Shown piece by piece: positions 528-22,524 of a stretch of DNA of 64,000 nucleotides (its first letter is position 1; the number at the start of each line of letters is the position of its first letter). The stretch lies in the NCBI GenBank assembly GCA_016206155.1, contig JACQSC010000002.1, positions 143,473 through 207,472 on the forward strand. The letters are read 5' to 3'. Made by a program: the position numbers and the translations under genes. The stretch comes from Candidatus Uhrbacteria bacterium (lineage in GTDB: Bacteria; Patescibacteriota; Patescibacteriia; JACQRZ01). Under the pieces are notes generated by a model. That model was not told where the DNA came from. It saw only the letters and a list, made by a program, of their open reading frames with translations, and searched no databases.

Positions 528-607
528 GTAAATCCTTGTTCTACGTTATCCCCTCCTATTTCCTTTCATGTCGTGGTATACTAACAGCAAGAGATATATT
601 TCTCCCC

Positions 608-3600: not shown

Positions 3601-5323
3601 TATTTATACTAATAGCTACAATAGACTTTATGTAAGGGGTGATACTGGCAACGTCGGCATCGGGACGACAGTTCCGAACCAAAAATTGGAAGTAAAAGCC
3701 GGCGATGGTACGAACAGTTTGATTTATGGTCTGAAATTGGAAAATGTTGGTGCCCAAGATGACGGTAATGGAGTTGCAACCGGCATACTGTTTGGAGTAA
3801 GTAGTAGCGCTGACTCTAACCGCGGGAAAGGCGGTTTGGTCTATGCTTATCCACCTAGCGGAGGGACATGGAATAGGGGCGACTTTTATTTCTTACAGAA
3901 CACTGATGAAACTTCTGCTGTTGCAGGCTTGTCAGACGCAGTCATGACCATAAAAAACAACGGCAACGTCGGGATTGGGACAGACCCATCAAGTCCTTTC
4001 CATATACTGAACTCATCTGGTGACATGATGAGGATTCAGAATTCTGGAGGGGGTGAAGCCGACATTCGATATCTTACGGGCAGTAGTAGTTGGGAGGTGG
4101 GCACGAACAATGTTGGCAACGGGACAGACAAAAATCAATTTTATATCTATGATGCAAGCGGCGTTCCTAATCCCTATGCATTTACCGTGCAGCGTGGAAC
4201 TGGCAACGTCGGCATTGGGATGACCCCCCTAACAGAAAAATTGGAGGTCGCAGGTTCGATCAAAGCAAACGATCACATTGAATCGCGCTGGACTAGTGTT
4301 GTAGATACCGCCTATAACGCAAACCCACGTACCTATTATACAAGCAGAAATATGACAATGCGGACGGGCCTTAATGAGCAATACGAACTTGGTGAAATTG
4401 CTGTAACGTCACAACATCCTCTTGCATTTTATGCCAATGGTTATGAGCATATGCGCATCACCGTGGATGGCAAAGTCGGGATTGGGACGGCAGATCCGAA
4501 AGAAGGTCTTGATGTTTATGGTAAACGCACTGTCCTTCGAGGAGGATTATATGTCGGCGGAAATGACAATTTTAATTGGATTTCTGGATTTTTTAGTAAG
4601 CCGCTTGCATTCTTTGTCCGCGATAATAGTGGAGCATTTTCAGAAAAAATGAGAATTTTGCAGAACGGTTACGTCGGGATTGGAACGGATGAACCAAAAA
4701 CAAAACTTGATGTTCAGGGTGGGGATATCAACGTTGGGTATCTCGGAGAAAAAAAGAAATTCGCTGATTTGTCAAAACATGAAAAATTGGCGTTTGAAAC
4801 CGATCGTGTCGGGCTCGATGTTGCAGAGCTTTTTGAATCAGAAGAAACCGTTGAGGTCGGAGATTTGTTAGTGGTATCAGCGACAAACGAACGTAAACTC
4901 AAAAAATCATCCCATTCCTACCAAGACACGATTGTCGGCGTTGTGTCCGGTTCGCCCGCGCTTCTTTTTGAGGGCAGTGAGTTAAAGCTTGGGGCAAAAC
5001 CGAATAGATTTGAAAAAGGCGAAAAGCCCCCTGTTGCGCTTGCCGGCCGCATTCCGGTAAAAGTGTCTCTTGAAAACGGTACGATCAAGCCCGGTGATTA
5101 TCTTACCACGTCCAGCAAACCGGGCGTTGCCATGAAGGCAACCGAACCCGGCATGACAATAGGCGTTGCGCTTGAGAGTTATGACGGCGAGGGCGATGGG
5201 AAAATTTTGGTTTTTCTCAATCTTGGTGAAAAGAACACAAGCAGTGTTATCAAAGAGCTTCAAGGGCTTCTCAAATCCCTTGAACGCCGCATCCGGATGA
5301 TGGAATACAAACCCCGATGGTAA
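608..5323 (+). CDS. Large secreted fibre/adhesin with ~15 G(N/K)VGIGT repeats and a C-terminal intramolecular-chaperone-like (peptidase G2/S74-like) domain
   Basis: N-terminal hydrophobic signal ending AYA. Repeated GNVGIGTxxP junctions. C-terminal DVAELF...GDLL...VGVVS...VALAGRIPVKV...GDYLTTS...G.A motif followed by a coiled coil. ATG 608 preferred to TTG 536. Confidence 0.8.
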   Translation: MSMLHEPYSSSRGKSAYLLSALFVVLVGTAFLIVPNGAYAISAAPTLPAPVSGAPKALPADHLLDVLNKQTSTRAASDASAFSGTVKIGGATQAAKGILEIGDVGVTHDAFLLSVASGIASTGVGANNRKALVLQGGPTPKISAYDYVARAGMKLTINPDNSDVVIVPGGGRVGIGTIPTASSVGLLQIAKTNDRYSGITFNDSRLRLGSDPNGNGAIFAQGGGAILEVGAQGYISFTTGAIAGHATEKMRINEAGNVGIGTTEPGAALEVKRTVGNGNAEIFANYNGTNIGRLNAASNGNVYMGVSSGTGDLAIGVNDNVTALNILGKVIKREDNVEVGSIGNVGIGIAKPLAKLHIEGQSTWGGLTIKNKNNWYTHFNYPDDKNYIRGTTIIADNDANVKVGIGTSSPGYKLEVNGDIRTGAGGDIRLGPANSGTDAILYSDNGELSFYTNKDRRMVLDTSGRLGIGTPEPENKLEISGNNQAIALTTGGGEKNNLYGGRWRVHDTGNGVYTSFDTKNVNSWTNDRLTILSSNGNVGIGTTAPVVAGGGFTGIDIRGTNGSSVVLGKSGGSPTFLYSDSSYLNFETPGVIAFRPGGSEKMIITSDGKVGIGTTTPESKLHIQNVLEGNPADKSLFSIYDLHNQGRNGQYFRILGGTRGINLISNWTSLSFGARYDAGGEFKQDLTIDTNGKVGIGTTSPRVKLEVAGSVSTGLLAPRNTYLADTYPTFSGWSNTQTSTCGTWEMLGGFEILGGRDYVRKTIPNLPAGDYIVEFDFYKIDSWDGELAIFMWNDDRKWSRKYYSSEGTQICGQQHNNWNEDKAHVAVEVNQTETGNATLHFGATLDSHAGDESWGVNNIVVYKKGSTTTLAAIGDLKVNGNVGIGTSDPWAKLHIEGRDKWGGLAIVNANTHVTHFNYPDGKNYIRGTTIIADDGGNVGIGTTSPHSERKLHVMGTERIETAADAWNWLEIARGDDTIYFGSDVTNRGIWSNGRRGVGIYTNSYNRLYVRGDTGNVGIGTTVPNQKLEVKAGDGTNSLIYGLKLENVGAQDDGNGVATGILFGVSSSADSNRGKGGLVYAYPPSGGTWNRGDFYFLQNTDETSAVAGLSDAVMTIKNNGNVGIGTDPSSPFHILNSSGDMMRIQNSGGGEADIRYLTGSSSWEVGTNNVGNGTDKNQFYIYDASGVPNPYAFTVQRGTGNVGIGMTPLTEKLEVAGSIKANDHIESRWTSVVDTAYNANPRTYYTSRNMTMRTGLNEQYELGEIAVTSQHPLAFYANGYEHMRITVDGKVGIGTADPKEGLDVYGKRTVLRGGLYVGGNDNFNWISGFFSKPLAFFVRDNSGAFSEKMRILQNGYVGIGTDEPKTKLDVQGGDINVGYLGEKKKFADLSKHEKLAFETDRVGLDVAELFESEETVEVGDLLVVSATNERKLKKSSHSYQDTIVGVVSGSPALLFEGSELKLGAKPNRFEKGEKPPVALAGRIPVKVSLENGTIKPGDYLTTSSKPGVAMKATEPGMTIGVALESYDGEGDGKILVFLNLGEKNTSSVIKELQGLLKSLERRIRMMEYKPRW

Positions 5324-7910: not shown

Positions 7911-9683
7911 ATGACACGAGAACAAGAGGACGCGCGTGAAAAATATGCAAATCGTGGAGAATATAATACAGGGTATGTGCGTCAGAGACTGCGCGCGTAC
8001 ATAGCCTCACTTATTGTTTTTTTTTCTCAAGCGCAAGAAGTATCAGCTAAAATAGAATATCAGTTTGATAAACAACAAGGTTCATACGAACTTATTTATC
8101 AAGAAAATGAATCTGAGCGGCCTGTTCATTTTTTGCCAGTTCCAATTGCAGCGATCGGCGAACATGAAAACGGAGAGCGCATACGCCTTCCGTTTTTTGA
8201 TCGATTAAGAAAAATAGACATTACAGAAGGAGGGGTAAATTACTCAATAAAAGATCCGATTGCATTTCGTAATTTTATTGAAAATGAGCTTGACCGCTAT
8301 GTGCGAGCGCTTAACATACATGGAGATATTAAGCCGCAAGATCTTATACAGATAACGGCATTGATAACTAAAAATAATATGCTTCCAACGTCTGATGAGC
8401 GTCTTTTAGATAGCATTAATCATACTCCGTTGGATGAATTACTGATGGGCGTAAAACGCGGTGTTTGCCGTCATTACGCCGCCGCTTTTGAAACGGTGGC
8501 AGAAACTATCATTGAAATCACTCAATCAAAATATCTGCAGAACATTATTGTTGATGAAGTAGGTATGGCCGATGTAAATCATGCATGGAACGTTGTTTAC
8601 CATTTGACTCAAAATAACGGGGCGCATTTTATCAATATGGGATTTATTGATACGACAATCAAGCCACACGGGACATTTTCCGATCTGGGCGAAATCGAAA
8701 AAAGACAAGGCGATGTAAAAAATTTTAGAACCATCTATCTTAATCAATTATATTATGCAGTAAACCCTGAAGATAGAATTGCTGTTGTTCGAGATTCAGT
8801 GCTCTTGGCGGAAAACGAAAAAGAAAAGCTGCAGTACGTGACAGAGCTTGCCTTTACTTTTTTATCGCAAGTTAAAGAACTGTATCAACGGAAAGAAAAT
8901 GGCAAAGCGAGACAAGTATTTGAGGAGGCGGATAAGTATTTTAACAAATGGTACGAACAGTATTCAAAAGACGACACAGCGCTTCAGCATGTGCAGTTTA
9001 TTCGGACAATAATGATATCCATCTATTCTGTTGTGGCAGATAATACGCCTGATGCAGAAGGCAAGGTATCTGTTTACAAACGCGCATTGTTATGGAGCGA
9101 TATATTTAATTATGCTTTGGCGGATGCATATCTAAAAAGCGGCAATCAAGATGAGGCGCGGGCTATTTACGTTGGGATGCTTGAAAACATAAACGACAGC
9201 AGAGTGTTTGAAAAGGTATTTGGATTTTTCAATAAACTCAATGAAAGTGAAAATGTTGAAAAAACATTGAGCGCATACAAAAAATATCTTGAAAAAAGAC
9301 CAGTATCAGAGCAAGCATTCGGTTTTACTATACTTGCCGACGCATATGAGGTATTGGGAAATATTGAACAAAAACTATTATATTTAAAAAAAGCATTTTT
9401 CTGCGACGATGAACGAGCCGAAAGGAGGATGGAGAGAGGGGAACGATACGCTGATTCTGTTCTCGCGCAGGGAGATGCGATAACTGCCAGGAAAATATAT
9501 GATGAAATGTTTAAAATCTATAAAAAAGCAAAAAAGGACGGAAAGATAACCATTCCTTTCAAGCGTCAGATGCCCGGTAAAGGTTTTGTGGAAGTTTTTG
9601 CCGAGGAAGATGTATATAAAGAATATCTAAAGGAGAAACTGGGACAGCCACCGTTTTTACACATTAACGAAGCGGAGAACTAA
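7911..9683 (+). CDS. Exported transglutaminase-like (Cys-His-Asp) protein with C-terminal TPR-like helices
   Basis: GVCRHYA, NHAWN and FIDTT motifs. TPR-like LADAYLKSG..DEARAIY repeats. Last codons read through a cassette site. Confidence 0.7.
   Translation: MTREQEDAREKYANRGEYNTGYVRQRLRAYIASLIVFFSQAQEVSAKIEYQFDKQQGSYELIYQENESERPVHFLPVPIAAIGEHENGERIRLPFFDRLRKIDITEGGVNYSIKDPIAFRNFIENELDRYVRALNIHGDIKPQDLIQITALITKNNMLPTSDERLLDSINHTPLDELLMGVKRGVCRHYAAAFETVAETIIEITQSKYLQNIIVDEVGMADVNHAWNVVYHLTQNNGAHFINMGFIDTTIKPHGTFSDLGEIEKRQGDVKNFRTIYLNQLYYAVNPEDRIAVVRDSVLLAENEKEKLQYVTELAFTFLSQVKELYQRKENGKARQVFEEADKYFNKWYEQYSKDDTALQHVQFIRTIMISIYSVVADNTPDAEGKVSVYKRALLWSDIFNYALADAYLKSGNQDEARAIYVGMLENINDSRVFEKVFGFFNKLNESENVEKTLSAYKKYLEKRPVSEQAFGFTILADAYEVLGNIEQKLLYLKKAFFCDDERAERRMERGERYADSVLAQGDAITARKIYDEMFKIYKKAKKDGKITIPFKRQMPGKGFVEVFAEEDVYKEYLKEKLGQPPFLHINEAEN
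9636..9658. repeat. Cassette-boundary site 1 (AAAC-TGGGAC-A-GCCACC-GTTTTT)
   Basis: Same 13-bp core spacing and A/T flanks as the perfect palindromic sites at 17777 and 22476. Confidence 0.7.
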
Positions 9684-9838
9684 TTCATATTATACACAGA
9701 GTTTTTGGGACATAACCGCATATTTTATTTTATCGCGCAAGAGATCTTATGAAGATCCGTATTTATATTTTCATTCCCATTTTTTTCCTGATTATAGTAA
9801 ATAGTGTAGAGGCAACAATCTGTATTAACGGTGATTGT
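9649..9838 (+). repeat. 190-bp direct repeat copy 1 (copy 2 at 17797-17986)
   Basis: Matches 17797-17986 with two substitutions found by eye; contains the upstream region and first 30 codons of the 900-aa gene. Confidence 0.95.
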
Positions 9839-9868
9839 ATTAACGGTGTCAGGAATAGTTTTTATTGA
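9749..9868 (+). pseudogene. Truncated 5' duplicate of the 900-aa secreted protein gene
   Basis: MKIRIYIFIPIFFLIIVNSVEATICINGDC, then a break into site 2 and a stop after 39 codons. Confidence 0.85.
9842..9863. repeat. Cassette-boundary site 2 (AAC-GGTGTC-A-GGAATA-GTTTTT)
   Basis: Nearly identical to the site at 15435; preceded by a stuttered TGTATTAACGGTG duplication (9821 and 9836). Confidence 0.7.
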
Positions 9869-9891
9869 ACGCAGATTGAGGTGGTAATTTT

Positions 9892-12800
9892 ATGTCATTC
9901 CGCTCAAAGCGAGGAATCCCTCGTTTCACCATATTACGAATAACGCCAAAGACCACGTTTGGTTTCCTGGCGTTGTTTTTTATTGGTATTGTCATCCTAT
10001 CTTTTTTTGTTATCGGCACGGCTGCGTCCGCGGCATCGTTTTGTTTTAATAGCAAAACTCCACAAGAGCAATGTTACCCCAACCTTAAATTCATTGGTAC
10101 GGTCGGGACACGACCGGTAAAGAACACGTATCTCAAAAAGCTAGAGCCGCCAAAAAGTGATTATTGGGGGGACACACAAAGGCATTGGCCAACCTCAAAC
10201 CTTGGGGACGCAACTAAAGATCGTTACTGCAATAACAGTAAATGGGGCGGGGGAACTACAAATCAAACGTGCATTTCCCGCGCCGGCTTGGAAACTGCAA
10301 TGCCGCGACTCGAGATTGTCAATCGTGGGGCAGATAGCTCCTTGGAAAATTTTCCGATGACCCTGCGCGTCCGAGGCCAGACGAAGAAGTACTGGTATTT
10401 TCCCGCCTATTACAGTATTCTTCCTTTTAAAAACCCATATACAGGTGAAGATAAGATATACCAGTATGATGTTCGCCCCGATCTCAGCTATAATTTTAAA
10501 GACCTGAAAGGACGCAAATGTCCCTGCGCTCCAGCGACACCACCAATACTTGATGATCAATGGGGACAAGGAGATGGTTATTATACTTACCACGGCGCTC
10601 CCTTTTTTAAAGAGGAAAAAAACGGTTTCCGGAAGTGCAATTTTTTGTCAGACAAACGCGACTACTATCCTGTAGATGTGTCCGGATGGAGTCACCGCAC
10701 ATGGGAGGAGACAGAAGATCCAAACGATTGTTATTTTGAAATTGCGAGTTCATCAAACGTACCCGGTGCAAATAAAAAATTTTATTATCGTGTCAAAAAA
10801 ATTCCCGTTATTCATCTTGAAGAAATTTTCCATAATGATACGAACGCTTTTCGTAATTATGAATATTCGGTAAAACAAGAGTCAGTGGCACGAAACGAGT
10901 ATGAAAGAGTAAAGACCGAAGAAATTGAAACGCCAAAACTGATAAACAAATGGCGTATTTATTATCGATATGACTATGGAAAGGAACGGATAGATTTAGA
11001 AACAGATAATTTTGGGAAGATCGTCGCGGCACGTTATGGCAATCAAACACCTGCTGAATGCCCTTGTTCTAAAAACGGAAAAATATGTATTGTTGGAGAT
11101 GTAGTTCCATGGGATGTCTATTCTTGTTATGAAAAATATAAAGATTGGAATAAACCATGGTCACAGTTAGCGGAAGAAGATAAAAGAAAAGATCGTAGAG
11201 TGCAATCAGCAAGGAAGAGCTACTTTAAAGCCTTCGGAGAATTGCAGAAAGATTCTGGAGAATTGTTAGAACAAAATAGAGTCGCAAATATCGCGAGAGA
11301 GAAGGGGGAATACTATCCATACAAAGTATATGAACCAGGGGTCGATCCGCCAGTAAATTCCTTTGATTTTATATCCACGTATGATGGTCAATTGCTACCA
11401 ACGGCAAAACAAGCATATAAGGTAAAAAATGAACAGGAGATCTGGAATAGAAATGCGTTGAACTTTGGCTACGGTGCCATAGTAGACTTAAGGTATACGC
11501 CTACGAATTGCAATATTAACGGCCATTTCGATAACATCGAAATTGGTTGGGACAATAAAGGCAGATATACGGATTATACGCTCACGATGCACGGAAATCC
11601 CAGAAATAAGATTAGTGATATAAAGAAGAGTGCAGAAGCTAGACGTATTCAGGCAGTCGCGGTCCCGACGCAGTTAAGTCTTAGTGGCGCAGAATGTAGA
11701 CTGCAAATGACCCCTCATCTTTTTGACTTTCCTGTGACATACTATTTTTCAACAGGGGACGTGGACATGCCACCGATAAGGATTCAATCATTTAAGGTTT
11801 CCGTCGAAGGAAAAACATCCAATCCGTTAGGGGAATGCAGCGCAGACAATTACACAAAATGTCTCCCGAAAGAAAAACTGCCAAGCGGCATGGAAAGTAG
11901 TGAGGCGTTTTTTACCGATGGTCGTACTCCTTTACGTTCGAAAAGAAGCGCACCAGCCAATACAACACTTGAGATTGAAACAAAAGAGAAAGAAACATTT
12001 GCCAATGTAAACTGGAATGTCACCGGAATGGATGATGTAAATGGAATTGTGGTTACGGTGGTGAAACATACACAAGACATAAATCATAGAGTTTACGATA
12101 TCGCCAACGTTGTTCAGGGGGGGACAGGAAGTTATACATCTCAACTTAAACCTGGAGACTGTAAAACAGAAAATAATAAACAAACATGTTCATGGAATAC
12201 CTATTCATTTTTTCTTACTGCGGTCAACGACCGCGCAGTAACAGATTCCGATAGATTAAAATATAATGAAGATAACATACAATACGTTTGGGCCGCTTCG
12301 CAAAAGATTGATGTAAAAGTAAAAAAAGAGGAATTGGCTATTCCTAAGTTTAGCGTTAAGAAATCCACTGGGAAGAAAGATTCCGCGGACTTAGAATGGA
12401 AAACAACAGGCGCGGAATTTATTAGGATAGAGATGCAGTATTCGTGGGGCAGGAAGAAGTCATATCCTCAGGGTGATAAGTGGGAAGACGGAACATGGAG
12501 CAAAGATACGAACGGCTCTGTGACGATTAATGGCATCGATACAAGAGATACGGTGTTTACCCTGTTCGCCCAAGACAACGAGGGCAATACCATCACATCA
12601 AACACAGAAAAGCTTGGTGATCCAAAGGAAGTGAACATCATCGATGTTGTTATTAATGGTCTGGGACTTCGAAATAGGCTTCTGAATAGATCACTCTATG
12701 AAATTATTACTGATTCTGATTGTCCCGACATTCCCATTGTCGGAGATATTTGTAGAGCGTTATCATTCAACAATATTTGGAGAACAGTTGGAGGTCTTGT

Positions 12801-14223
12801 AACAAAGGTTATCCCAGGTCTTGGTGATTTAGTGGGAATGTTCCTTAATTTCTTGAAGGAACCGGTGGTCGCAATTTTTGGGGTTATTATGGAGATTGTT
12901 GACAATTTTGTGATTCAAAAGAATACCGTGAAGGGTGCGGCAGAAAGCATCAATGAATTCATTGGCGGCTTCTTGAGAGAGTTTATTCCAAATTTTATCG
13001 CTGGCGCCGCCGAAGGGGTATTTAATAAGTTGATGGGTGATTGTGTTGGTTCAAAAATGGGTGGATGGATCAACATTGGAGTGCAAGCGCTGTATTCAGG
13101 AGTTGGGGGATTATTGCAGTTGATTGGAAAAATTCCGCTTCTTGGTGGTGTGGGTAAGATTGGTGAAAGTATGACGTCAGCATGTCCTGTCGAAAACTCC
13201 GGATGTACGATTGGGATTTGCGCGGGACAAGACACAGGTAAAGAAATAGGAAAAACCGTGCTTGAGGATGTTATCTCCGGGCTCCTTCCGTTTGTGCCTG
13301 TTACAGGAGCGCTTGATAGCGCCAAGAAGTTTATCGAACCTATGGCGACAACAATTTTCCCTGAGTGTAAAAATACCGTTCCCAAAGAACGTCAAGATAC
13401 AGATGCGTACGCCTGTATAAGTGGTTCTTGTCAGAAAGCTGAGAGAAAAGTTGAAATTTGCGGACTTGAAGGTGGAGGTGGTGGAGCGTATCCAAACAAG
13501 GCAGCCTGTCTAGCGTCGTGTGGCATACCACCGGTTACGACAGAAGTGAAGTATTATTATAAATGCAACGATCCAAGCACGCTTACATGTGATAAACAGG
13601 AAGAGAAAACAGAGTATGAGGGAGACGCTGGACTGTATGCATGTAATTTGACATGTAAGGAAAAGAAATTTGATGAGCCGACTAAAGACTATTTTAAATG
13701 CATAAATAAGAACGAAGGTCAATGTAGAAAAGTGGAAGAAAGTACCACTTATGTGGGTCTTATAGGAAAAGCAGCGTGTGACATTACGTGTAAGAAAACA
13801 GGAGTTGGTTGTGGATGTCCTAAACATCCCGAGTATCTTACCACATCTGAAATTGGCAAGAATCCTTTAAATAGAAAGAGAGCGATTGCAAATGTTTTGA
13901 TGACAACCGTCTACGTTTCGACCGGTGGTGTATTTTGTGTACGACGGGATGCCGCATATAATTGCGCGGAAATACTAGATAAGGCAGGCAAAGCTGACGA
14001 CCTTATAAAACTGGGGCGAGACAATAATTGGGATGTGTCCCAGAAGAAAGAAAGCATTGATCGTAGTGTATTTACCGGACTGTACGAAAAAGCAAAGCTA
14101 GTTCCTGGATGCGCTGCCTTTATAGCTATTGATAGCATTAAAAATTTTAAATTGCCTCTTTGCGAACAGGAAATAACTAATGCACGGTGCGAGGCAATTA
14201 CCTCTGAAGATGACTGCAGATAG
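9892..14223 (+). CDS. Large secreted Cys-rich multidomain protein (paralog 2) with Ig-like domains, a hydrophobic helical region and YxC..C..YxxxxxCxxxC repeats
   Basis: Signal/TM segment ending ASA; ASFCF...C N-terminus; Ig-like strands; Gly/aliphatic helices at ~12720-13345; three Cys repeats at ~13405-13795. Confidence 0.7.
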   Translation: MSFRSKRGIPRFTILRITPKTTFGFLALFFIGIVILSFFVIGTAASAASFCFNSKTPQEQCYPNLKFIGTVGTRPVKNTYLKKLEPPKSDYWGDTQRHWPTSNLGDATKDRYCNNSKWGGGTTNQTCISRAGLETAMPRLEIVNRGADSSLENFPMTLRVRGQTKKYWYFPAYYSILPFKNPYTGEDKIYQYDVRPDLSYNFKDLKGRKCPCAPATPPILDDQWGQGDGYYTYHGAPFFKEEKNGFRKCNFLSDKRDYYPVDVSGWSHRTWEETEDPNDCYFEIASSSNVPGANKKFYYRVKKIPVIHLEEIFHNDTNAFRNYEYSVKQESVARNEYERVKTEEIETPKLINKWRIYYRYDYGKERIDLETDNFGKIVAARYGNQTPAECPCSKNGKICIVGDVVPWDVYSCYEKYKDWNKPWSQLAEEDKRKDRRVQSARKSYFKAFGELQKDSGELLEQNRVANIAREKGEYYPYKVYEPGVDPPVNSFDFISTYDGQLLPTAKQAYKVKNEQEIWNRNALNFGYGAIVDLRYTPTNCNINGHFDNIEIGWDNKGRYTDYTLTMHGNPRNKISDIKKSAEARRIQAVAVPTQLSLSGAECRLQMTPHLFDFPVTYYFSTGDVDMPPIRIQSFKVSVEGKTSNPLGECSADNYTKCLPKEKLPSGMESSEAFFTDGRTPLRSKRSAPANTTLEIETKEKETFANVNWNVTGMDDVNGIVVTVVKHTQDINHRVYDIANVVQGGTGSYTSQLKPGDCKTENNKQTCSWNTYSFFLTAVNDRAVTDSDRLKYNEDNIQYVWAASQKIDVKVKKEELAIPKFSVKKSTGKKDSADLEWKTTGAEFIRIEMQYSWGRKKSYPQGDKWEDGTWSKDTNGSVTINGIDTRDTVFTLFAQDNEGNTITSNTEKLGDPKEVNIIDVVINGLGLRNRLLNRSLYEIITDSDCPDIPIVGDICRALSFNNIWRTVGGLVTKVIPGLGDLVGMFLNFLKEPVVAIFGVIMEIVDNFVIQKNTVKGAAESINEFIGGFLREFIPNFIAGAAEGVFNKLMGDCVGSKMGGWINIGVQALYSGVGGLLQLIGKIPLLGGVGKIGESMTSACPVENSGCTIGICAGQDTGKEIGKTVLEDVISGLLPFVPVTGALDSAKKFIEPMATTIFPECKNTVPKERQDTDAYACISGSCQKAERKVEICGLEGGGGGAYPNKAACLASCGIPPVTTEVKYYYKCNDPSTLTCDKQEEKTEYEGDAGLYACNLTCKEKKFDEPTKDYFKCINKNEGQCRKVEESTTYVGLIGKAACDITCKKTGVGCGCPKHPEYLTTSEIGKNPLNRKRAIANVLMTTVYVSTGGVFCVRRDAAYNCAEILDKAGKADDLIKLGRDNNWDVSQKKESIDRSVFTGLYEKAKLVPGCAAFIAIDSIKNFKLPLCEQEITNARCEAITSEDDCR

Positions 14224-14240
14224 ACAGAAAGGTTTTTATT

Positions 14241-15392
14241 ATGTTAAACGAACGCGCACATAAAGAGTTGCTACCGGCAGAGCGGTATGAAAAATTTATC
14301 CTCCCCCTTGCGTTTGTATGCGGTATGTCTCTGCCTCCTGAAGCTCGCGCTGCAGAGCCGCACGCACGCGAATCGTTGCAGCCGCTTACCGCAGAACAGC
14401 TTAAAGAAGTCCGTGAATTAGAAAAAACATCTCCGCTTGCAAAAGCAATTGATGCTGTGCCCGATTCCTTAATGAGAGAAGAAGGATATGATGGGGATAT
14501 TTTGTCACGCAAAGAGCGGGCGAAGTCCCAAATCCCGATCTTGTACGATGTAAGATGGAAGGTTGGTCCGGGTGAAAAGCCGTTGTCACAACGATATCCG
14601 CTTATTAATGTAGAGATATTTACTAACGGCGCTTTTATCTATTTCAATATTCCTGATGATGCGCGATTGCACAAGTTGGGCATCACGCGAGAGGAGATGG
14701 AAGTTGTTGCATCAGAAATTAAAGAGTCAACAACGATCCTGACCGATATGCCCGCGCACCGAGTTAGTCAGCCGAAAGATTCTAACCTTATTGTTTTTTT
14801 TAGTGACAATCCTCAAGAATCCTCAAGCATTAGAGACGGAAGGGCTGTTGGTCATACTCTGTATACAGTAGGTGTGCCAATCTCGTTTTTTCCATTGGGA
14901 ACTGTATACCCAATAGAATTTATTGAGCCTGGCAGTAATGGAGGTGTTTATATTCCACTGGAATCTTATAATGATAAAATTGAAAAAATGTTATCAGGTA
15001 AGAATCTTCATGAAAAAACTCGTGAATTAATATATGATATTACGCGGCACGCATACTTCAAGGAGTTGATTTATACAGCAGAGCATGAAATATGCCATTT
15101 TCTCGGTTACGGTCATAGCAACAATAAGAAGCATATTACTTATGGCGGGCCGGGCGTGGTGAGCTCGGGTACCGTCGTATCTCTCGGAAAAAGATCTGGA
15201 AAAAAACCAGTAATTCCCGAAGGCGCTTCTCTATATACTGATAAAATGGGAAATGATTATTATTTTTTATCTGCATGGGGTGACATTCGAAAATCTCCAG
15301 TCGTTGATCTGAATTTTTTTCTACGGATATTTGCGAAACAGAATAAGGAGCGAAAACTTATGGAAGAGCGCAATCAGCAGCATATGGAGTAA
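14241..15392 (+). CDS. Exported zincin metallopeptidase (matrixin/M10-like)
   Basis: HEICHFLGYGHS matches HExxHxxGxxH; hydrophobic signal ending EARA. Confidence 0.75.
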   Translation: MLNERAHKELLPAERYEKFILPLAFVCGMSLPPEARAAEPHARESLQPLTAEQLKEVRELEKTSPLAKAIDAVPDSLMREEGYDGDILSRKERAKSQIPILYDVRWKVGPGEKPLSQRYPLINVEIFTNGAFIYFNIPDDARLHKLGITREEMEVVASEIKESTTILTDMPAHRVSQPKDSNLIVFFSDNPQESSSIRDGRAVGHTLYTVGVPISFFPLGTVYPIEFIEPGSNGGVYIPLESYNDKIEKMLSGKNLHEKTRELIYDITRHAYFKELIYTAEHEICHFLGYGHSNNKKHITYGGPGVVSSGTVVSLGKRSGKKPVIPEGASLYTDKMGNDYYFLSAWGDIRKSPVVDLNFFLRIFAKQNKERKLMEERNQQHME

Positions 15393-15427
15393 TAACGCAC
15401 GAGAAAAAGGATGCGGGAAAGCTGTGC

Positions 15428-15451
15428 AAAAAACGGTGTCAGGAATGGTTT
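15428..15451. repeat. Cassette-boundary site 3 (AAAAAAC-GGTGTC-A-GGAATG-GTTT)
   Basis: 13-bp core at 15435-15447; lies ~85 bp upstream of the Y1 transposase remnant. Confidence 0.75.
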
Positions 15452-15534
15452 ATTGCAAAAACTCCTACTTATAGGCATAGATAGGAGCATGGGTAGGGGG
15501 ATAGGAATCATTTTATGTGTGGTATGATTTTCGT

Positions 15535-15618
15535 ATGCTTCGACCACACAGAACAGATGTCGGAGATGTCGTGTATCACTTATCAATCTTGCGAACGCTC
15601 GATTGGGCAAAAACGTGA
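15535..15618 (+). pseudogene. 5' remnant of a Y1/REP-associated tyrosine transposase (RAYT, IS200-like HUH)
   Basis: MLRPHRTDVGDVVYH, then a 1-nt frameshift restores (V)INLANAR, resembling the MPRxxR....YHVxNRxNxR N-terminus. Extended -10 TGGTATGAT lies just upstream. Confidence 0.7.
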
Positions 15619-15646
15619 CCATGGGCCGTTTTTGAAATCAAATGTC

Positions 15647-15690
15647 TTGACAACGATACCGTATACCTGTATTGTATAGTTACATACAAT
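15647..15690 (+). promoter_or_regulatory. brnTA promoter with overlapping palindromic operator
   Basis: TTGACA-17-TATTGT; ATTGTAT-N6-ATACAAT inverted repeat at 15671-15690. Confidence 0.6.
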
Positions 15691-15697
15691 TATCACT

Positions 15698-16021
15698 ATG
15701 AAGCTTGGATTTAGCGCTATATCAATTGAGGGGTTTGATTGGGATACGGGGAACAGTGAAAAGAATTGGATAAAGCATCACGTCAGAAAGAATGAATGCG
15801 AGGAGGTTTTTTTCAATAAGCCGTTAAGAATTTTTGATGATCAGGTATATTCCAAGACTGAGAAACGTTTTGGGGCCCTCGGAAGAACGGATAGAGGAAG
15901 ACGGCTCACTATTATATTCACTATACGAAAAAAAATGATTCGGGTCATTTCTGCACGAGAACAAGGTCGGCACGATCGAAAAATTTATGAAGCAGTCGAG
16001 CAAAACTATTACCAATCATAA
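15698..16021 (+). CDS. brnT: BrnT family toxin
   Basis: FDWDxGNxxKNxxKHxV...E.R..ALG.T...IRVISAR motif. Confidence 0.9.
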   Translation: MKLGFSAISIEGFDWDTGNSEKNWIKHHVRKNECEEVFFNKPLRIFDDQVYSKTEKRFGALGRTDRGRRLTIIFTIRKKMIRVISAREQGRHDRKIYEAVEQNYYQS

Positions 16022-16036
16022 TCAGGACGCACCTTT

Positions 16037-16327
16037 ATGAAAGAAGGGACAAGGAGAAAAATCAAAATGCTTCCATCGTTCCGCAGTGAGGATGAGGAGC
16101 GGGAGTATTGGGATAGCCATGAATTGAGCGATGTGTTCGACGTAACACATGGCACTGATATGACATTTCCCAACCTCAGGCCATCAACGAAAAACATTAC
16201 GATCCGCGTGCCCGAATCCATGCTTTTTGCCCTGAAGGGTATTGCACGAAAAAAAGATGTGCCATATCAGTCACTTGCAAAAGTGTATCTTGACGAAAAA
16301 ATTCATGAGGAGTATTTCGTGAAATGA
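16037..16327 (+). CDS. BrnA/CopG-family antitoxin
   Basis: PSFRSEDEEREYWDSH...ITIRVP...A..K.VPYQSL RHH pattern; directly after brnT. Confidence 0.88.
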   Translation: MKEGTRRKIKMLPSFRSEDEEREYWDSHELSDVFDVTHGTDMTFPNLRPSTKNITIRVPESMLFALKGIARKKDVPYQSLAKVYLDEKIHEEYFVK

Positions 16328-16348
16328 AATAACTTCGCTTAGTGTCAC

Positions 16349-16399
16349 GGAAAATTGGGGAAAATTGGTGTCAGAAAATTGGTGTCAAGTCCGCATTTT
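16349..16399. repeat. Cassette-boundary site 4 with stuttered half-sites
   Basis: GAAAATTGGG, GAAAATTGGTGTCA, then GAAAATT-GGTGTC-A-AGTCCG-CATTTT. Confidence 0.7.
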
Positions 16400-16569
16400 C
16401 GCATTTGGAAAATGGATTCACTACGACAAGTTAAACCATATACTTTCCAGCCGCTTTTTACCGCGTCGAAGTAACGTTTTCTGCCCGCCACTTTTATCAT
16501 GAGGCAAAAAAGGTTGACACAATTTTTAACCATGGTAGAATATTGTAGTAATACATTTTTTGTCAACTT

Positions 16570-17751
16570 ATGCGTATTGACCGCTATATTCATGACGTCA
16601 TCCTTGCGGATCTTCATGAGCCAACCATGGTGTTTCTTGCAGGTCCCCGACAAGTCGGCAAGACGACACTCGCGCACATTCTCGGAGAGAAAGACTTCAC
16701 TGCTTATCAGTATTTGAACTGGGATGACAGCGACGACCAGAAGCGTATTCTCGCCCGTGATTTTGAAGCTGATGCGCGCTTACTTGTCTTTGATGAACTG
16801 CATAAATACCGCAACTGGAAAAATTATCTTAAGGGACTATACGATAAACAAAAAACTCGATTCGCCATCATCGCAACAGGCAGTGCGCGTCTTGATATGT
16901 ATCGTCGCGGCGGCGATTCGTTGATGGGGCGTTATCATCATCTTCGGCTTCATCCGTTTTCACTTGCGGAACTTGTTGGGCAGAGGTTTTCCAGCAGTCC
17001 ATTTTCAGAGCTGATGTTTCCCGTTGAAACGAGTACCATTGCCCAAGCGGCGCGCGACCTGCTCCGCTTTGGAGGTTTCCCAAAGCCATTTTTGCAAAAG
17101 AGCGATACTGCGTTGAGACGTTTTCACAACGAGCGCTTTGATCGCTTAATCAAAGAAGATATTCGTGATACCGAACGGGTGCACGACCTTTCGTTACTCC
17201 AAGAGCTCGCTGCGCTTCTTCCGGAACGGGCAAGCTGCCGCCTCTCATTAAACAATCTGCGAGAGGATCTTGGAGTTGCGCATAAGACCGTGAGCCATTG
17301 GATGGATGTGTTTGAGAGATTTTACTATCATTTTCGTATTACGCCATTCGCGATCAAAACAGCCGCCTCGCTTCGCAAGGAACCAAAACTCTATTTATGG
17401 GACTGGTCGGTGGTGGAGGATGCTGGAAATCGTTTTGAGAATATGATCGCGTCACATCTTCTTAAGTTTGTTCATTTTTTATGCGACACGCAAGGATACA
17501 AAGCGATGGTGCACTATATGCGGGATCGTGATGGACGCGAAGTTGATTTTTTGATAACGATTAATCAGAAGCCATGGTTTGCTGTTGAGGTAAAATATTC
17601 AGACACCACTATCTCGCCACATCTTTCCTATTATATGCAACGCGCTCGGATTCCATTCGGATATCAGGTTGTCGCAACGCCAGGGATTCATCGAATAAGA
17701 GATTCAATTCATGTGATAAGCGCCAGTCGTTTTCTTGCGGGGCTTGTGTAA
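16570..17751 (+). CDS. AAA_14 ATPase with DUF4143 (PD-(D/E)xK-like) domain
   Basis: GPRQVGKTT, FDE, TGSA, GGFP, KLYLWD, FEN and EVDF...EVK motifs; TTGACA-16-TAGAAT promoter at 16514-16541. Confidence 0.92.
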   Translation: MRIDRYIHDVILADLHEPTMVFLAGPRQVGKTTLAHILGEKDFTAYQYLNWDDSDDQKRILARDFEADARLLVFDELHKYRNWKNYLKGLYDKQKTRFAIIATGSARLDMYRRGGDSLMGRYHHLRLHPFSLAELVGQRFSSSPFSELMFPVETSTIAQAARDLLRFGGFPKPFLQKSDTALRRFHNERFDRLIKEDIRDTERVHDLSLLQELAALLPERASCRLSLNNLREDLGVAHKTVSHWMDVFERFYYHFRITPFAIKTAASLRKEPKLYLWDWSVVEDAGNRFENMIASHLLKFVHFLCDTQGYKAMVHYMRDRDGREVDFLITINQKPWFAVEVKYSDTTISPHLSYYMQRARIPFGYQVVATPGIHRIRDSIHVISASRFLAGLV

Positions 17752-17757
17752 GGAGGG

Positions 17758-17806
17758 AAAACGGTGAAGGAGAAACGGTGACTGTCACCGTTTTTACACC
17801 GTTTTT
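17758..17806. repeat. Cassette-boundary site 5 (perfect AAAC-GGTGAC-T-GTCACC-GTTT palindrome with stuttered half-sites)
   Basis: Core at 17777-17789; partial AAAACGGTGA before and CACCGTTTTT after. Confidence 0.85.
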
Positions 17807-17896
17807 ACACATTAACGAAGCGGAGAACTAATTCATATCATACACAGAGTTTCTGGGACATAACCGCATATTTTATTTTATCGCGCAAGAGATCTT

Positions 17897-20599
17897 ATGA
17901 AGATCCGTATTTATATTTTCATTCCCATTTTTTTCCTGATTATAGTAAATAGTGTAGAGGCAACAATCTGTATTAACGGTGATTGTCTTGATCAGCAACA
18001 ACTTCATGAGTTTGACAAGATTCAGAATTATTTAGATTCTTCCGCTATCAATCGTTATAGCCAAAATGGAGAACGATTTATAAGGTGGCCGAAGGGAAGT
18101 TACAGAGAGACCGGAAAGAGCGCTCTTTGCATAAATGGGAATTGTATTACCGAGTGGCCACCTCGTTTGAAAAATTTCGAATTAACTCTCGAAGGCGAGG
18201 ATTCAATGCAACGATATGTGGGCAGGTATTTTGTATTCGGACGAGTAGCAGCTCAGGATTATTATCGAGCTGGAGTTGTTTTGAAATACAATAACCAGTA
18301 CAAGCGATGGCTTGATCCTTCAACCGCTTCCCCGCCAGAAATTATTTATACAACGCCAGCATTTTCAGATACGGGGTATTCATTTGAGACATATTTAGGG
18401 CAATCCGTGGTTGGAAAAAGAAACTTTAATTATTTAAAATCGTCAAGGTATACCGATTTGAGCAATTTTGCTTGTAACAAGGTATCTACAAAGACAGAAT
18501 ATATTTACAATGATAAAGCACGATATATAAAATTTGAGGGCGGCAGAGACGAAGCAAGCTATCGCGGTTCGCTCACCTGTAAAATTCGTCACAAAAGTCC
18601 TATTGGCCTAGAGGCTGTTTATCCATTTGCTGTTGGAAAATTTGAATTGCCAGCTCCGAAAATACTTCAATTCAACGGAATACAGACTTCAGATGGAAAA
18701 CTTCAATTTTTTATCTTTGGTGACGGATACCAATTGACCGCTAAATATGTTGCAGAACTTGATTCGTCGGGACAGGAAAAGAAAGTCATTTTTGATTTGT
18801 TGAATGATCCGTTTGATTTGATGCATATCATTCCTTATCCCGCCGTAGAAACATCATATCGTTTTGTTATAAAAAATTCAGCTGGTGTCGTAACAGCGGA
18901 ATTTTCAAAGAGGCCAAATTATTACGGTCCATGGAGACCGGGCCCTCGATGGGCGACCGACACGCTTGATGATGGGCTAAGGGAGTGGTATAGTTCAGTT
19001 CGCTCATATCAAAGCGTTATAGATGAATTGGCTAATCCACCAAAAGAGAGGAAAGCAAGGGAGGATTCTTCGGAGCGCAACACAAGACAAAAAACAAAAA
19101 TTCAAAGCATTATCAGCAATGTAGGCAGTGGAATCACGTATTACGGACAAAATATTCAAGACATGTCGTATATTCATGATCCAGAGGTTGCTTTCGAGGA
19201 TACGTACACAGATCACCTTGTAGACTCCCTTCCTCCTTGCAGTCCAAAACCAAACCCGCTCTTAATTCAAGAGGCCTACCCAGATCTTTCAGAATTTTAT
19301 CCGGCATATCGCTGTTTTGGTAAAGCAAAACATTGTCTTGACGTGCTGCCGGATTGTCATATATCAGCTGTTAATATAACTGATATATTTAATTTAGATC
19401 AAATACATGCGAAAGATCTTCAAAATGAAGCGTTCATAGTAGAGTCTTGTGGTTTTTGGAGCTCCAATGAAAACAAATTAAAGCATCCTGATCTTGGACG
19501 ACGATGGTTATGGGACCCGAAGCGAAAATATCTTGTAAAAGATAATCCAGTTCAGACGAAAGTACGAGAAGTGCGTTGTGAAGATGGCGTGGTAGATACA
19601 CAGTATACGTATTCAAGCGTTCGCGGACCTAAAGTTAAATACGAATGCGGCCTTATGGATTCACGGTGCAGGGAGGGCGGGGTACGATCGCGCATGGAAA
19701 TCGCGAGAGAGTTAAAATCGCGTTCCATAGAAATTCCGACAGAATCGCCGACTTCGATTAAACAACAAGGAAAGCCAATCAATGCTGAGTCAACAGGCAG
19801 TGAGTGGGTTGATTGCTCGAAAACCCCTGAAGGGTGTAATAAATTTGTTCCAGATGATATAAATGACAATGCTGGCCATCTTTATCATTCTGAAGGGCAT
19901 TCAAATGATGGCATTCGTGATTTTCAGCGTCGCCTGAATGAGGCGCGCAGGGATGGTTCTGGAACCCATCCGATTGATCTTTATAATCCCCAAACACAAA
20001 AACAATATGTTGAATCAAATACAGGAGTTGTCACAAAGGAAGAGGCGGAATCTATCTATGGTAGTACAACTTCTGAGCAGCGTGAAGAAATCATTGACAA
20101 GGCAAAAGAGAAAAGAACCGATAGCGCGTTTAGTGTTGCGTCAATTATAGGCCAGAAGAAATGCAAGACTGACTTTCCATACGGCATCTTCCATGTGTGT
20201 TATTTTTCCGGGATAAACGCACCGATGACTGACGCGTCGGTCATTTTACAACAGCCTGAATGGAACGTGCCAGGTCCCATAAAAACAGGAGTGTTGATGG
20301 ATAATAGCTGGGGGACGGGGGTTATCAGTGCGACCAAGAGAACAGATGACATATCTGGCGTCTGGCGCGGACAATTTTTGTTTGAAAAGGGAACTTATTC
20401 ATTTTTCACGGTTGCAGATGATGGTGTTGAGGTTTGGTTTGACGATACCATGATTATTCAAAATTGGGCTGATCACGGAGAGACAGAAAACCGATCATCC
20501 CCTATTTTTCTTGATGGAGGATTTCATACCATTATGGTTCGATGGTACGAAAAAAACGGAGGGACTCGCTTGTTACTGCGAACCGAATTTATTCAGTAA
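17897..20599 (+). CDS. Secreted Cys-rich protein (paralog 3) with C-terminal PA14 domain
   Basis: Signal peptide; ICINGDC and LCINGNCITEWP; C-terminal W.GQF.F..GTY.F.TVADDGV.VW.D...IIQNW.DH...HTI.V.WYE.NGG matches PA14. Confidence 0.8.
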   Translation: MKIRIYIFIPIFFLIIVNSVEATICINGDCLDQQQLHEFDKIQNYLDSSAINRYSQNGERFIRWPKGSYRETGKSALCINGNCITEWPPRLKNFELTLEGEDSMQRYVGRYFVFGRVAAQDYYRAGVVLKYNNQYKRWLDPSTASPPEIIYTTPAFSDTGYSFETYLGQSVVGKRNFNYLKSSRYTDLSNFACNKVSTKTEYIYNDKARYIKFEGGRDEASYRGSLTCKIRHKSPIGLEAVYPFAVGKFELPAPKILQFNGIQTSDGKLQFFIFGDGYQLTAKYVAELDSSGQEKKVIFDLLNDPFDLMHIIPYPAVETSYRFVIKNSAGVVTAEFSKRPNYYGPWRPGPRWATDTLDDGLREWYSSVRSYQSVIDELANPPKERKAREDSSERNTRQKTKIQSIISNVGSGITYYGQNIQDMSYIHDPEVAFEDTYTDHLVDSLPPCSPKPNPLLIQEAYPDLSEFYPAYRCFGKAKHCLDVLPDCHISAVNITDIFNLDQIHAKDLQNEAFIVESCGFWSSNENKLKHPDLGRRWLWDPKRKYLVKDNPVQTKVREVRCEDGVVDTQYTYSSVRGPKVKYECGLMDSRCREGGVRSRMEIARELKSRSIEIPTESPTSIKQQGKPINAESTGSEWVDCSKTPEGCNKFVPDDINDNAGHLYHSEGHSNDGIRDFQRRLNEARRDGSGTHPIDLYNPQTQKQYVESNTGVVTKEEAESIYGSTTSEQREEIIDKAKEKRTDSAFSVASIIGQKKCKTDFPYGIFHVCYFSGINAPMTDASVILQQPEWNVPGPIKTGVLMDNSWGTGVISATKRTDDISGVWRGQFLFEKGTYSFFTVADDGVEVWFDDTMIIQNWADHGETENRSSPIFLDGGFHTIMVRWYEKNGGTRLLLRTEFIQ

Positions 20600-20606
20600 G
20601 TCGTCT

Positions 20607-22163
20607 ATGAGCGAAAAAACCAGAAAGTTTGAAAAAGCTGTGGTAGCTCTTGGTGCGGTAGGAGCGCTTCAATTTATCCAGCAGGATGCTCGCGCGGAAA
20701 GCGTTCGCCATCCAGTATCACAACAATTTGAATTAACCTACCAAGAGCGCGAAGGCGGAGAGCCGATCATTATTCGATTCCAATCTCCGAAAAATTTCGG
20801 ACATGAACAAGCTGACGAAACAGTAGACGATCATCCACTAATAAGAAAAATGAAAGAGACTGATGTATTTATTCATCATGTGAACGGATCTATCCTAGAC
20901 AGGAAACAATTTAGAGCATCAATCATTGAACGCATTCCCTCGATAAAGCAGCGATTGCGCATACCGGAACAAAATATTTCCCCACGAGAAAGTATTAAGC
21001 TCGGGGAATATATCATAAAGCAAGACCTTAGGTATGATTATTCTAGTGTTTATCCGTCCGACAGTGACGCGAGGAAGCGATCGGAAATTATTGACATCAC
21101 GCCAGTAGATCAGCTTCGCGGGAAGGGAGTTGTATGTCGCCATGCCGCGGTATATTTTTCGAAAACGCTTGAAGAGATTATTCAATCTGAAGCTCAACAC
21201 TCTCCCCAGGTACGCGGAATGTCAGTTGATGAACTTAGTGGTGATGTTAGACACGCGCTGAATAGTGTTCATAGAATATATCGGAAGGATGGTAAAACAA
21301 TTTTTGAGATAACGCCAATAGATATAACTCCTTCTGAGCGTAAAGAATTTCGGGTTGATACAGAACAGACAGTAACGAAACCCGCGGAAAGGATTTTATC
21401 GTTTCTTCGTCTCCATATTTTTCCTTTCGTGTCGTCAGAGTATATCTTCGCTAGTTTACGTTCTTTTTTTTCCGAAGTCATGCCACATGATGAAAAACTG
21501 TATGCCGTCAATGAGGCATATGAAATCTACCGCGATTCAGTGGAAGCGTTGAAAAAAAACGCACATCATGAGATACCATCACTTTTTTCTTCGGCAGTTC
21601 TATTTTTTGATGATATTCACGCTGGAGCTGTTCAAAAAAAGGACTGGGGTATAGTGTTGGCGGTTCAGGACGTTCTATATCAAATATTTCGTTCGCATGC
21701 AAATGATTTTTCAGATGTCAATAAAGCTCTTGCAATATACAAGGATAGGATTGCGCAAACAGCATCATCGGAGAATATGCGACAGATTCACGCATACTCT
21801 TGCTATGGAGACGCGCTACGAAGGTATGGACGGCCTGGCGAAAGTCTTGATGCTATGGAACGCGCATATATAATTAGCAGAATGGTGGAGTATTGGAAAT
21901 ATCATGTTGAAATAGGTATGGCATACGCTGATTTTTTAGGTGATGCCGGAATGAGAAAAGAAGCCCTTGCAATTTTGCGTGAGCTTTTTGAGTATTTTCA
22001 AAAGCTCCCGAAAAATGGAGCACTTGCAATCGGTTATCATAATGAGATCTATGAGAACGGTGAATATAAGAAGATTGAACCATTTGCGTCGCGCGAGAAT
22101 TTTGAACGATATGTTGAGCACAAAAAGAGGGGGTGGGAATCCAAAGCAAAATCACGAGATTAA
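20607..22163 (+). CDS. Exported transglutaminase-like (Cys-His-Asp) protein with TPR-like C-terminus; paralog of 7911-9683
   Basis: VVCRHAA, RHALN and PIDIT motifs; TPVDQL versus TPLDEL; signal ending DARA. Confidence 0.7.
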   Translation: MSEKTRKFEKAVVALGAVGALQFIQQDARAESVRHPVSQQFELTYQEREGGEPIIIRFQSPKNFGHEQADETVDDHPLIRKMKETDVFIHHVNGSILDRKQFRASIIERIPSIKQRLRIPEQNISPRESIKLGEYIIKQDLRYDYSSVYPSDSDARKRSEIIDITPVDQLRGKGVVCRHAAVYFSKTLEEIIQSEAQHSPQVRGMSVDELSGDVRHALNSVHRIYRKDGKTIFEITPIDITPSERKEFRVDTEQTVTKPAERILSFLRLHIFPFVSSEYIFASLRSFFSEVMPHDEKLYAVNEAYEIYRDSVEALKKNAHHEIPSLFSSAVLFFDDIHAGAVQKKDWGIVLAVQDVLYQIFRSHANDFSDVNKALAIYKDRIAQTASSENMRQIHAYSCYGDALRRYGRPGESLDAMERAYIISRMVEYWKYHVEIGMAYADFLGDAGMRKEALAILRELFEYFQKLPKNGALAIGYHNEIYENGEYKKIEPFASRENFERYVEHKKRGWESKAKSRD

Positions 22164-22187
22164 TTGATTTGGAAAAAAATACGAACA

Positions 22188-22480
22188 AAACCATATACTT
22201 TCCAGCCGCTCTTGTTGCGTTGAAGTAACGTTTTCTGCCCGCCATTTTATAATGAGGCAAAAAAGGTTGACACAATTTTAAACTAAGGTCGAATATTGTA
22301 GTAATACATTCTGATCGCTTAATCAAAGAAGATATTAGTGATACCGAACGGGTGCACGACCTTTCGTTACTCCAAGAGCTCGCTGCGCTTCTTCCGGAAC
22401 GGGCAAGCTGCCGCCTCTCATTAAACAATCTGCGAGAGGATCTTGGAGTTGCGCATAAGTGTAAGGAGGGAAAACGGTGA
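22188..22480 (+). pseudogene. Internally deleted duplicate of the DUF4143 ATPase cassette
   Basis: 22188-22310 resembles 16433-16557 (promoter); 22312-22459 matches 17139-17286 (one substitution seen); 22459-22480 matches 17746-17767. Confidence 0.92.
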
Positions 22481-22524
22481 CTGTCACCGTTTTTTTCCTG
22501 TCACCGTTTTTTTGCCGTTTTTTT
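22471..22524. repeat. Cassette-boundary site 6 (AAAAC-GGTGAC-T-GTCACC-GTTTT plus two stuttered right half-sites)
   Basis: Core at 22476-22488; CTGTCACCGTTTTTTT and CCGTTTTTTT follow. Confidence 0.85.

Follow-up and report, generated by a model that had tools for sequence, protein, structure and literature searches.

TIRtrons are elements in which the gene for a Y1 transposase, TIRYT, lies between terminal inverted repeats (TIRs) carrying GGGGWSAS; their TIR families, some of which are self-complementary, occur as singles, dimers and groups (Di Nocera, De Gregorio and Rocco, 2013, PMC3733652). Most TIRYTs belong to TnpA-Y1 subclass 2.1 (Quentin et al., 2018, PMC6006769), which equals RAYT group 1, among the most insertion sequence (IS)-like of the RAYT groups (Bertels et al., 2017, PMC5581495). 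HUH enzymes cut and rejoin single strands, and TIRYT is placed among them by family (PMC6006769); an assay of TIRYT cleavage and transfer is proposed as future work (PMC3733652). Here, we analyze a 64,000-nucleotide stretch of DNA from a Candidatus Uhrbacteria bacterium (the window; G000:C9:143473-207472 in the 914-kb, 10-contig genome G000), in which a first-pass annotation had described six sites as a dedicated, integron-like cassette array linked to a Y1/HUH transposase. Judged by their sequence, these sites are the TIRs of TIRtrons, the elements of TIRYT, and not a private cassette system. The kind of element is already known; this locus adds junction-level evidence and cognate enzyme-site pairs, and we lean slightly toward a reading in which the island carrying the sites was built by repeated one-ended TIRYT joins.

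The locus shares with published TIRtrons the placement of a Y1 gene between TIRs, the dispersal of the families and the self-complementarity of some TIRs, and differs in that many sites here read GGTG where published TIRs have GGGG (PMC3733652). Same-facing arrays of orphan ends, stutters on the outer side, cargo and breakpoints at TIRs are undescribed in the available part of that account, in which in-frame copies are described for GTAG and CGTC repetitive extragenic palindromes (REPs) and not for TIRs (PMC3733652). In the open literature, covered by titles and the beginnings of abstracts and with subscription papers outside the search, we found no paper on TIR-bounded cargo or orphan arrays. 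Shared with TnpA-Y1 subclass 2.1 (PMC6006769) are the HuH and Y---NP motifs, what may be its C-terminal extension, the lack of REPs and TIRs with GGGG[AT][CG]A[CG]; the likeness is one of description rather than of profiles, and no helix-turn-helix (HTH) family matched in the proteins scanned here. The REPtrons and REPINs of TnpA-REP groups 2 and 3 (Corneloup et al., 2021, PMC8266576) and the Rickettsia palindromic elements are likewise paired, hairpin-forming repeats, spread by Y1 enzymes and with in-frame copies in genes for DNA repair and replication, whereas the flanks of the Y1 genes here, read directly, hold no GTAG foot, and single TIRs of the families F1 and F3 defined below stay unfolded. 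The integron passages of that paper compare hairpin recognition only (PMC8266576).

All six 13-nt cores named in the first-pass annotation are present with their A- and T-tracts (Table 1), and each is a variant of GGGGWSAS, five reading GGTG and one TGGG. Three genome-wide families cover them: F1 (sites 2 and 3), F3 (site 4) and F7 (sites 1, 5 and 6). Exact GGGGWSAS occurs in the GGGGTCAG and GGGGACAG genome copies of these families. A family-level scan, with patterns derived from G000 itself, returned 129 TIR matches at 73 loci against 1–3 expected by chance; a looser half-site motif matched 214 times in the genome against 66–69 times in Markov-3 sequence. The sites thus exceed chance. The motif of the first-pass annotation matched 33 times genome-wide. 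The dispersed families occur as singles, dimers and groups, and most copies are hairpin pairs: pairs were called at 38 of the 73 loci, and many of the 35 loci called solo have a decayed partner. Two candidate statistics were discarded, namely a count of intergenic loci (40 of 73), which is crude and includes shadow ORFs (open reading frames), and a strand bias of two-ended F2 pairs against GC skew (18 of 24 share one orientation, or 15 of 21 once paralogous copies are excluded), which is too weak. Self-complementarity is confined to sites 1, 5 and 6; a single TIR of F1 or F3 forms no fold, and site 2 none at all, which restricts the earlier description of the sites as quasi-palindromic. The proposal that left and right halves had been mixed and matched was not borne out, each site being a whole member of one of the three families.

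Two intact PF01797 (Y1) genes are present in G000 (69 and 64 bits, cut-off 23), and both (L001 and L002) are tightly bracketed by inverted site pairs. Their translations carry NHWH/NHVH and Y...NP motifs. About 85 residues follow the Y1 core, an HTH family was not among the matches for the 225–229 aa proteins scanned, and both the NCBIfam model REP_Tyr_transpos (68–70 bits, cut-off 80) and the IS200 family (21–22 bits, cut-off 55) scored under their cut-offs. F1 brackets an intact Y1 gene in the relative G007 (G007:C11, L237:822-1499) and F7 brackets one in G012 (G012:C87); for F3, pairs were found and no cognate enzyme was found. Among seven Y1 genes from relatives, sites lie at both ends in five, at one end, at a contig edge, in one, and at neither in one. 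The proposed Y1/HUH link thus stands, as TIR-flanked Y1 genes in G000 and its relatives carry the same site families. The family identity of the sites and the intact TIR-flanked Y1 genes elsewhere in the genome are matters of observation. Internally deleted copies of the L001 TIRtron lie at C2:24513-24672, C2:27331-27490 and C4:11465-11586; the two copies on C2 are 98% identical, which argues that this mini-element has been copied.

The RAYT-like remnant reported behind site 3 is real. Read through with X at the frameshift, it was matched by a 14-protein TIRYT profile in the six-frame genome at E 2.5e-4 (E 1.3 for the first frame alone); tblastn with the remnant did not recover the Y1 genes. 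Because the remnant matches the TIRYT N-terminus, site 3 reads as the left terminus of a dead element. Where the remnant stops, a 13-nt stretch between an A-tract and a T-tract (15604-15630) is possibly a decayed site.

Integrons, too, place same-facing sites between accessory genes and carry toxin-antitoxin (TA) cargo; their hallmarks are IntI, attI and attC cassettes. They differ from this locus, where the window holds no tyrosine recombinase, genes have their own promoters and sites occur genome-wide and inside core genes. Of the genome's two PF00589 genes, one is on C3 and the other on C9, some 60 kb past site 6, and neither adjoins the array; within 150 nt of the six sites the + strand holds no RYYYAAC and one GTTRRRY, with no attC core pair. 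In IS91 and ISCR, one-ended rolling-circle capture relies on Y2-type enzymes, with oriIS and terIS next to the captured DNA. HUH chemistry is common to both, and one fixed plus one variable end would mobilize adjacent genes; the difference is that the present locus would call for a Y1 enzyme working in trans, with short TIRs from several families as its substrates.

A dedicated integron-like system, in which TIRYT would recombine site with site at the central base and so shuffle circular cassettes in an ordered array, appears improbable to us. It would account for same-facing sites at gene borders, and palindromic F7 sites could end one unit and start the next (G006:C23, G009:C60). The array, however, combines three unrelated inner-half families, its segments range from 0.2 to 5.6 kb with 0–2 genes each and their own promoters, no intact Y1 enzyme adjoins it, and distant homologs of the ATPase cargo gene have no such site beside them. 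Further evidence on this point comes from alleles with and without a site.

Fourteen Pfam-named genes of G000 with housekeeping or metabolic roles contain a total of 15 in-frame TIR insertions (L128-L143); among these genes are those for DNA polymerase I, an MnmA-type tRNA thiolase, UvrB, MetRS, TatD, ATP synthase gamma, UvrD helicase (twice) and threonine synthase. Orthologs without the insert were found in 13 of 14 cases for a RadA-like gene, 14 of 14 for the MnmA-type gene, 5 of 5 for both MetRS and UvrB and 4 of 4 for TatD; for the UvrD helicase, one of five relatives carries different TIR pairs near both positions. The insertions replace a few codons, and the outer half of the site is missing from the empty alleles; the element brings its own outer half. 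At C2:24503, likewise, a G009 gene (93.6% identical) continues where G000 switches to nine element-borne bases plus the core; the 93.6% tract common to the two genomes ends at the C2 mini-TIRtron, behind which the gene is not resumed. The absence of the outer half from the empty allele here and in six core genes speaks against a crossover at the central base. In the gene that we take to be RadA-like (L137/L145), an identical 50-bp pair is inserted at one and the same codon in both G000 and G009, though in opposite orientations, and a 15-nt in-frame stutter is present in G000 only, showing that ends are reworked after insertion. The protein is 89–90% identical in G006 and G009, far above other G006 core proteins, which hints at transfer. 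As a separate observation, an unrelated palindromic repeat family occurs at C1:100454-100555 of G000, at L225:3669-3770 and in the UvrD gene of G014 (L194), the G014 copy lying in frame in the helicase at the loop where G000 and G009 carry TIR pairs.

In the window and beyond, rearrangement breakpoints lie at sites. Segments 9649-9841 and 17797-17989 form a 193-bp direct repeat (98% identical), with site 1 at the left border and a cryptic half-site joint at site 2 on the right. The site-2 junction falls at an AACGGTG microhomology of gene 17897, and the product departs from its target already at core position 5, which places the join left of centre; together with the element-borne outer half, this contradicts the crossover at the central base envisaged in the first-pass annotation. 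Segment 9845-17789 starts with a left-type end, stops with a palindromic end and is flanked by the 193-bp repeats. Over its 3' 600 bp, the ATPase gene is 97% identical to G006:C23, from another genus, and the similarity breaks off within site 5. This site and its G006 counterpart have the left ten bases in common and differ on the right, a pattern that a site-to-site exchange would also produce, as it would the left half of site 1 if, as may be, that half is coding-derived. The homology of ORF 7899 to its paralog stops at residue 580, just short of site 1. On C7, one MNT copy and its twin part ways 5 bp ahead of a site. The list of breakpoints excludes a 102-bp match next to a G009 site, which belongs to another repeat family.

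Other duplications link 22312-22459 to 17139-17286 (99%), 22188-22310 to 16433-16557 (90%) and 22459-22480 to 17746-17767. The earlier statement that duplications start or end at sites holds for the 193-bp repeat at both its ends and for 22459-22480 at its right end; it fails for 22312-22459 at both ends and for 22188-22310 at its right end. The stuttered half-site copies noted at four sites are present, at sites 2, 4, 5 and 6, and stutters are family-wide: 27 of the 113 asymmetric ends have one, compared with 1.4% of positions drawn at random in a control that ignores A-richness. The 36 partial copies extend 3–11 nt into the core (two reach 20), with small peaks at 4 and 8. They may have arisen through slipped synthesis or repeated re-joining at the outer end.

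Since the genome is a metagenome assembly with short duplications next to sites, chance motifs or mis-assembly at repeats could be invoked, an explanation that we consider exceedingly improbable given the excess of matches over expectation. Four groundwater metagenome runs with this DNA were compared as contigs, in which rare variants are lost and which are interrupted at the 193-bp repeat. Sites 2, 3, 4 and 6 are spanned by single contigs, sites 1 and 5 not being shown bridged by 31 letters on both sides, and the run of a second study spans the site-6 junction (22338-22558) without differences. A loose end at 17772 proved to be another F7 site of G000 (C5:31523) rather than an alternative joint, and a depth dip at 15.4–17.4 kb in run X2 came with no joining contig in a run read only to 86%, and was dropped.

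The sites of the window are unpaired: 6 of 17 hand-picked orphan ends of the genome lie in 12.9 kb, or 1.4% of it (binomial 9e-8, about 6e-6 after multiplication by 70; one further orphan was found later). No site was found across 22.5–64 kb of the window, which agrees with the first-pass association of sites with accessory DNA; the closest sites outside the window, 7.9 kb before and 2.4 kb after it, and those inside core genes do not. The annotation also placed all sites at module boundaries, to which site 1, inside an ORF, is an exception. Of the 19 unpaired asymmetric ends in G000 and the family loci that lie within 300 nt of an ORF, 15 point toward a gene start; merging neighbors leaves 16, of which 13 do so. 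In these counts, relatives' loci were chosen because they bear sites, ORF calls are crude and kin are not independent. The clustering of unpaired ends and their mostly facing gene starts are thus observed here.

Same-facing arrays recur beside TA and AAA-DUF4143 genes in G000, G006 and G009, within a comparison set of 60 relatives, none from the same genus. G006:C23 has four site loci amid TA and secreted-protein genes. The array of G009:C60 comprises eight asymmetric ends, all facing the same way, plus two palindromic sites; it is interspersed with HEPN/MNT genes and two AAA-DUF4143 genes and lies at the homologous island, downstream of a homologous giant surface-protein gene. Among ten giant-gene loci of relatives, convincing downstream sites were found in three (G009, G012 and one in G010).

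Under the reading that we slightly favor, TIRYT, probably in trans, would cut single-stranded DNA at a TIR, and the TIR with the DNA behind it would be joined to a new A-rich or half-site-like target. One end would be fixed and the other cryptic or arbitrary, with TIRYT as the presumed maker of the joins. Such joins could yield insertions, adjacent deletions and short duplications, and hence an accretion of accessory genes in a dispensable island. Segment 9845-17789 would be a composite unit with its left TIR at site 2 and its palindromic TIR at site 5, and site 4, the ATPase gene and site 5 would together resemble a TIRtron in which cargo takes the position of the transposase. The process would likely be an opportunistic capture of genes by transposon ends, akin to one-ended transposition of IS91 and ISCR and unlike an ordered integron.

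The same clusters could be read as a passive graveyard, in which TIR pairs and TIRtrons insert everywhere and, within a dispensable island, the host loses one end together with neighboring DNA through deletions across hairpins. Accessory genes would come in by routes such as transformation and homologous recombination, and the sites would mark breakpoints and move no cargo; we regard this as possible, though doubtful. It fits the paired state of 38 of 73 loci and the decayed partners of many solos, the core-gene insertions that replace few codons, the internally deleted TIRtrons on C2 and C4, the plainly broken TIRtron end at site 3 and the homologs of cargo elsewhere without sites. Random loss, however, predicts equal numbers of start- and end-facing orphans, whereas 13 of 16 loci face starts, a skew that selection for promoter-bearing left ends or strand bias could also produce. 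The recurrence of same-facing arrays in three genomes and the site-bounded ends of the 193-bp repeat likewise speak against it.

Several results weigh against one-ended joining by TIRYT. The resident intact Y1 genes are flanked by F4 and F5 rather than F1, F3 or F7, so that action in trans requires cross-recognition or a lost enzyme. The partial stutter copies end at many positions, and no single cut site can be read from them. Neither PMC3733652 nor PMC8266576, as available, contains a TIRYT cleavage or transfer assay. In the four runs, compared as contigs from which rare forms are lost, no alternative joint was listed at any site, including the empty-site and circle joints that the first-pass annotation proposed to look for, a result that within this limit also counts against circular cassettes. 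The internal deletions of the decayed ATPase copy are not at sites, and the 97% tract shared with G006 has its other end at no site. Only one near-identical cargo copy was found across genomes, and a site lies beside the gene in 0 of 83 distant AAA_14-DUF4143 loci (two weak matches are more than 2.5 kb off) in a scan tuned to the G000 families. Seven of the ten giant-gene loci of relatives have no convincing site in the stretch examined, and the homologous island of G007 has TA genes and no site.

A wider interpretation is possible but, in our view, rather unlikely: TIRYT and its repeats would form a hitherto undescribed, recombinase-free gene-accretion system in which a TIR with its downstream gene is excised single-stranded and joined directionally at a TIR or cryptic half-site, building same-facing arrays of TA and ATPase genes behind a giant surface-protein operon and moving between co-occurring genera of Patescibacteria. 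Two of the three site families come with a cognate enzyme-TIR pair, and the locus further supplies a cryptic target in a coding region, a series of empty, filled and flipped RadA-like alleles and a cross-genus tract ending in a site, and these junctions and substrates make TIRYT function directly testable. If TIRYTs move adjacent genes, they would offer small-genome bacteria a route for the exchange of defence genes without an integrase; if they do not, this is an ordinary island littered with ends of miniature inverted-repeat transposable elements.

The first 22.5 kb of the window (GC 0.37–0.48, against 0.46–0.54 in the remaining 41 kb) code for large proteins that are probably secreted, along with a BrnT/BrnA pair and an AAA_14-DUF4143 ATPase (Table 1); type IV pilus genes begin at 22565, after the island. 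That all cargo genes point one way, as the first-pass annotation remarked, is true and uninformative, because all long ORFs from 536 to 30 kb, pilus genes included, are on the + strand. Homologs of ORF 536-5323 head variable surface-protein operons across the family and class. Gene 9892 has weak homologs in giant-protein operons of relatives, with no site in front; since the G009 homologs of 9892 and 14241 also lack a site in front, these surface proteins appear to be operon members and not cassettes. ORFs 7899-9683 and 20511-22163 share a conserved Cys-His motif (CRH..A, NHAWN) and a TPR-like C-terminus, and may adopt a transglutaminase-like fold; in G006 their homolog closes a giant-protein operon with no site present. 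G006 has this operon without the island, and in G001 and G009 the region upstream of the pilus ATPase gene is occupied by different genes, with no island. Any part of 9600-22560 was matched in 9 of 400 genomes of the class. No further near-identical ATPase copy was found among 59 metagenome loci (best 58%), and the ATPase paralog on C5 (55%) has no site.

Table 1. Features of the window and in-frame TIR insertions elsewhere in the genome. Positions are those of the window unless a contig is given.
Feature	Position	Strand	Description
ORF 536-5323	536..5323		1595 aa; at least 13 GNVGIGT-type repeats; no Pfam match
Site 1	9640..9652	+	F7 TIR; within the last 14 codons of ORF 7899-9683; left border of the 193-bp duplication
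Direct repeat R1	9649..9841	+	Gene 17897 from its promoter region through codon ~30, cut at the cryptic half-site
Site 2	9845..9857	+	Unpaired left-type F1 TIR; 15-nt stutter including target DNA; inner side toward start of gene 9892
Gene 9892	9892..14223	+	1443 aa; Cys-rich, likely secreted or surface protein; no Pfam or NCBIfam match
Gene 14241	14241..15392	+	383 aa; weak zincin-like match (Peptidase_M10, E 0.018, below cut-off)
Site 3	15435..15447	+	F1 TIR; left end of dead TIRtron
TIRYT remnant	15535..15610	+	~24 N-terminal codons, one frameshift; remainder of gene missing
BrnT toxin and CopG/BrnA antitoxin pair	15698..16327	+	
Site 4	16381..16393	+	Unpaired F3 TIR; two partial copies on outer side; faces ATPase promoter
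AAA_14 and DUF4143 ATPase	16570..17751	+	
Site 5	17777..17789	.	Perfectly palindromic F7 TIR; stutters on both sides; right border of segment 9845-17789
Direct repeat R2	17797..17989	+	Intact copy; cryptic half-site within signal-peptide coding region
Gene 17897	17897..20599	+	900 aa; likely secreted; PA14 domain at C-terminus
ORF 20511-22163	20511..22163	+	550 aa; paralog of ORF 7899-9683 (29% identity over 207 aa)
Decayed second ATPase module	22188..22480	+	Promoter, internal piece and gene end; two internal deletions
Site 6	22476..22488	.	Palindromic F7 TIR with stutters; border between island and type IV pilus/type II secretion system (T2SS) ATPase gene (22565)
In-frame insertions, including	C1:132151; C3:33757; C5:55092, 63477, 65136, 76634, 83625, 85239; C8:51169; C9:103763, 135561		

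A second site-studded island of G000 is found at C8:74.5-77.3 kb, on C7 and at C9:1-1.9 kb (L064-L066). It comprises three paralogous gene regions between TIR pairs, with HigB-like and MNT/HEPN modules and five same-facing ends on C7. An apparent circle on C7 was traced to a collapsed direct repeat of the MNT gene region and is no evidence for an excised circle. One position is empty on C7 and filled by two different pair variants on C8 and C9, and this pair could be read as the product of a crossover near the centre, in either direction.

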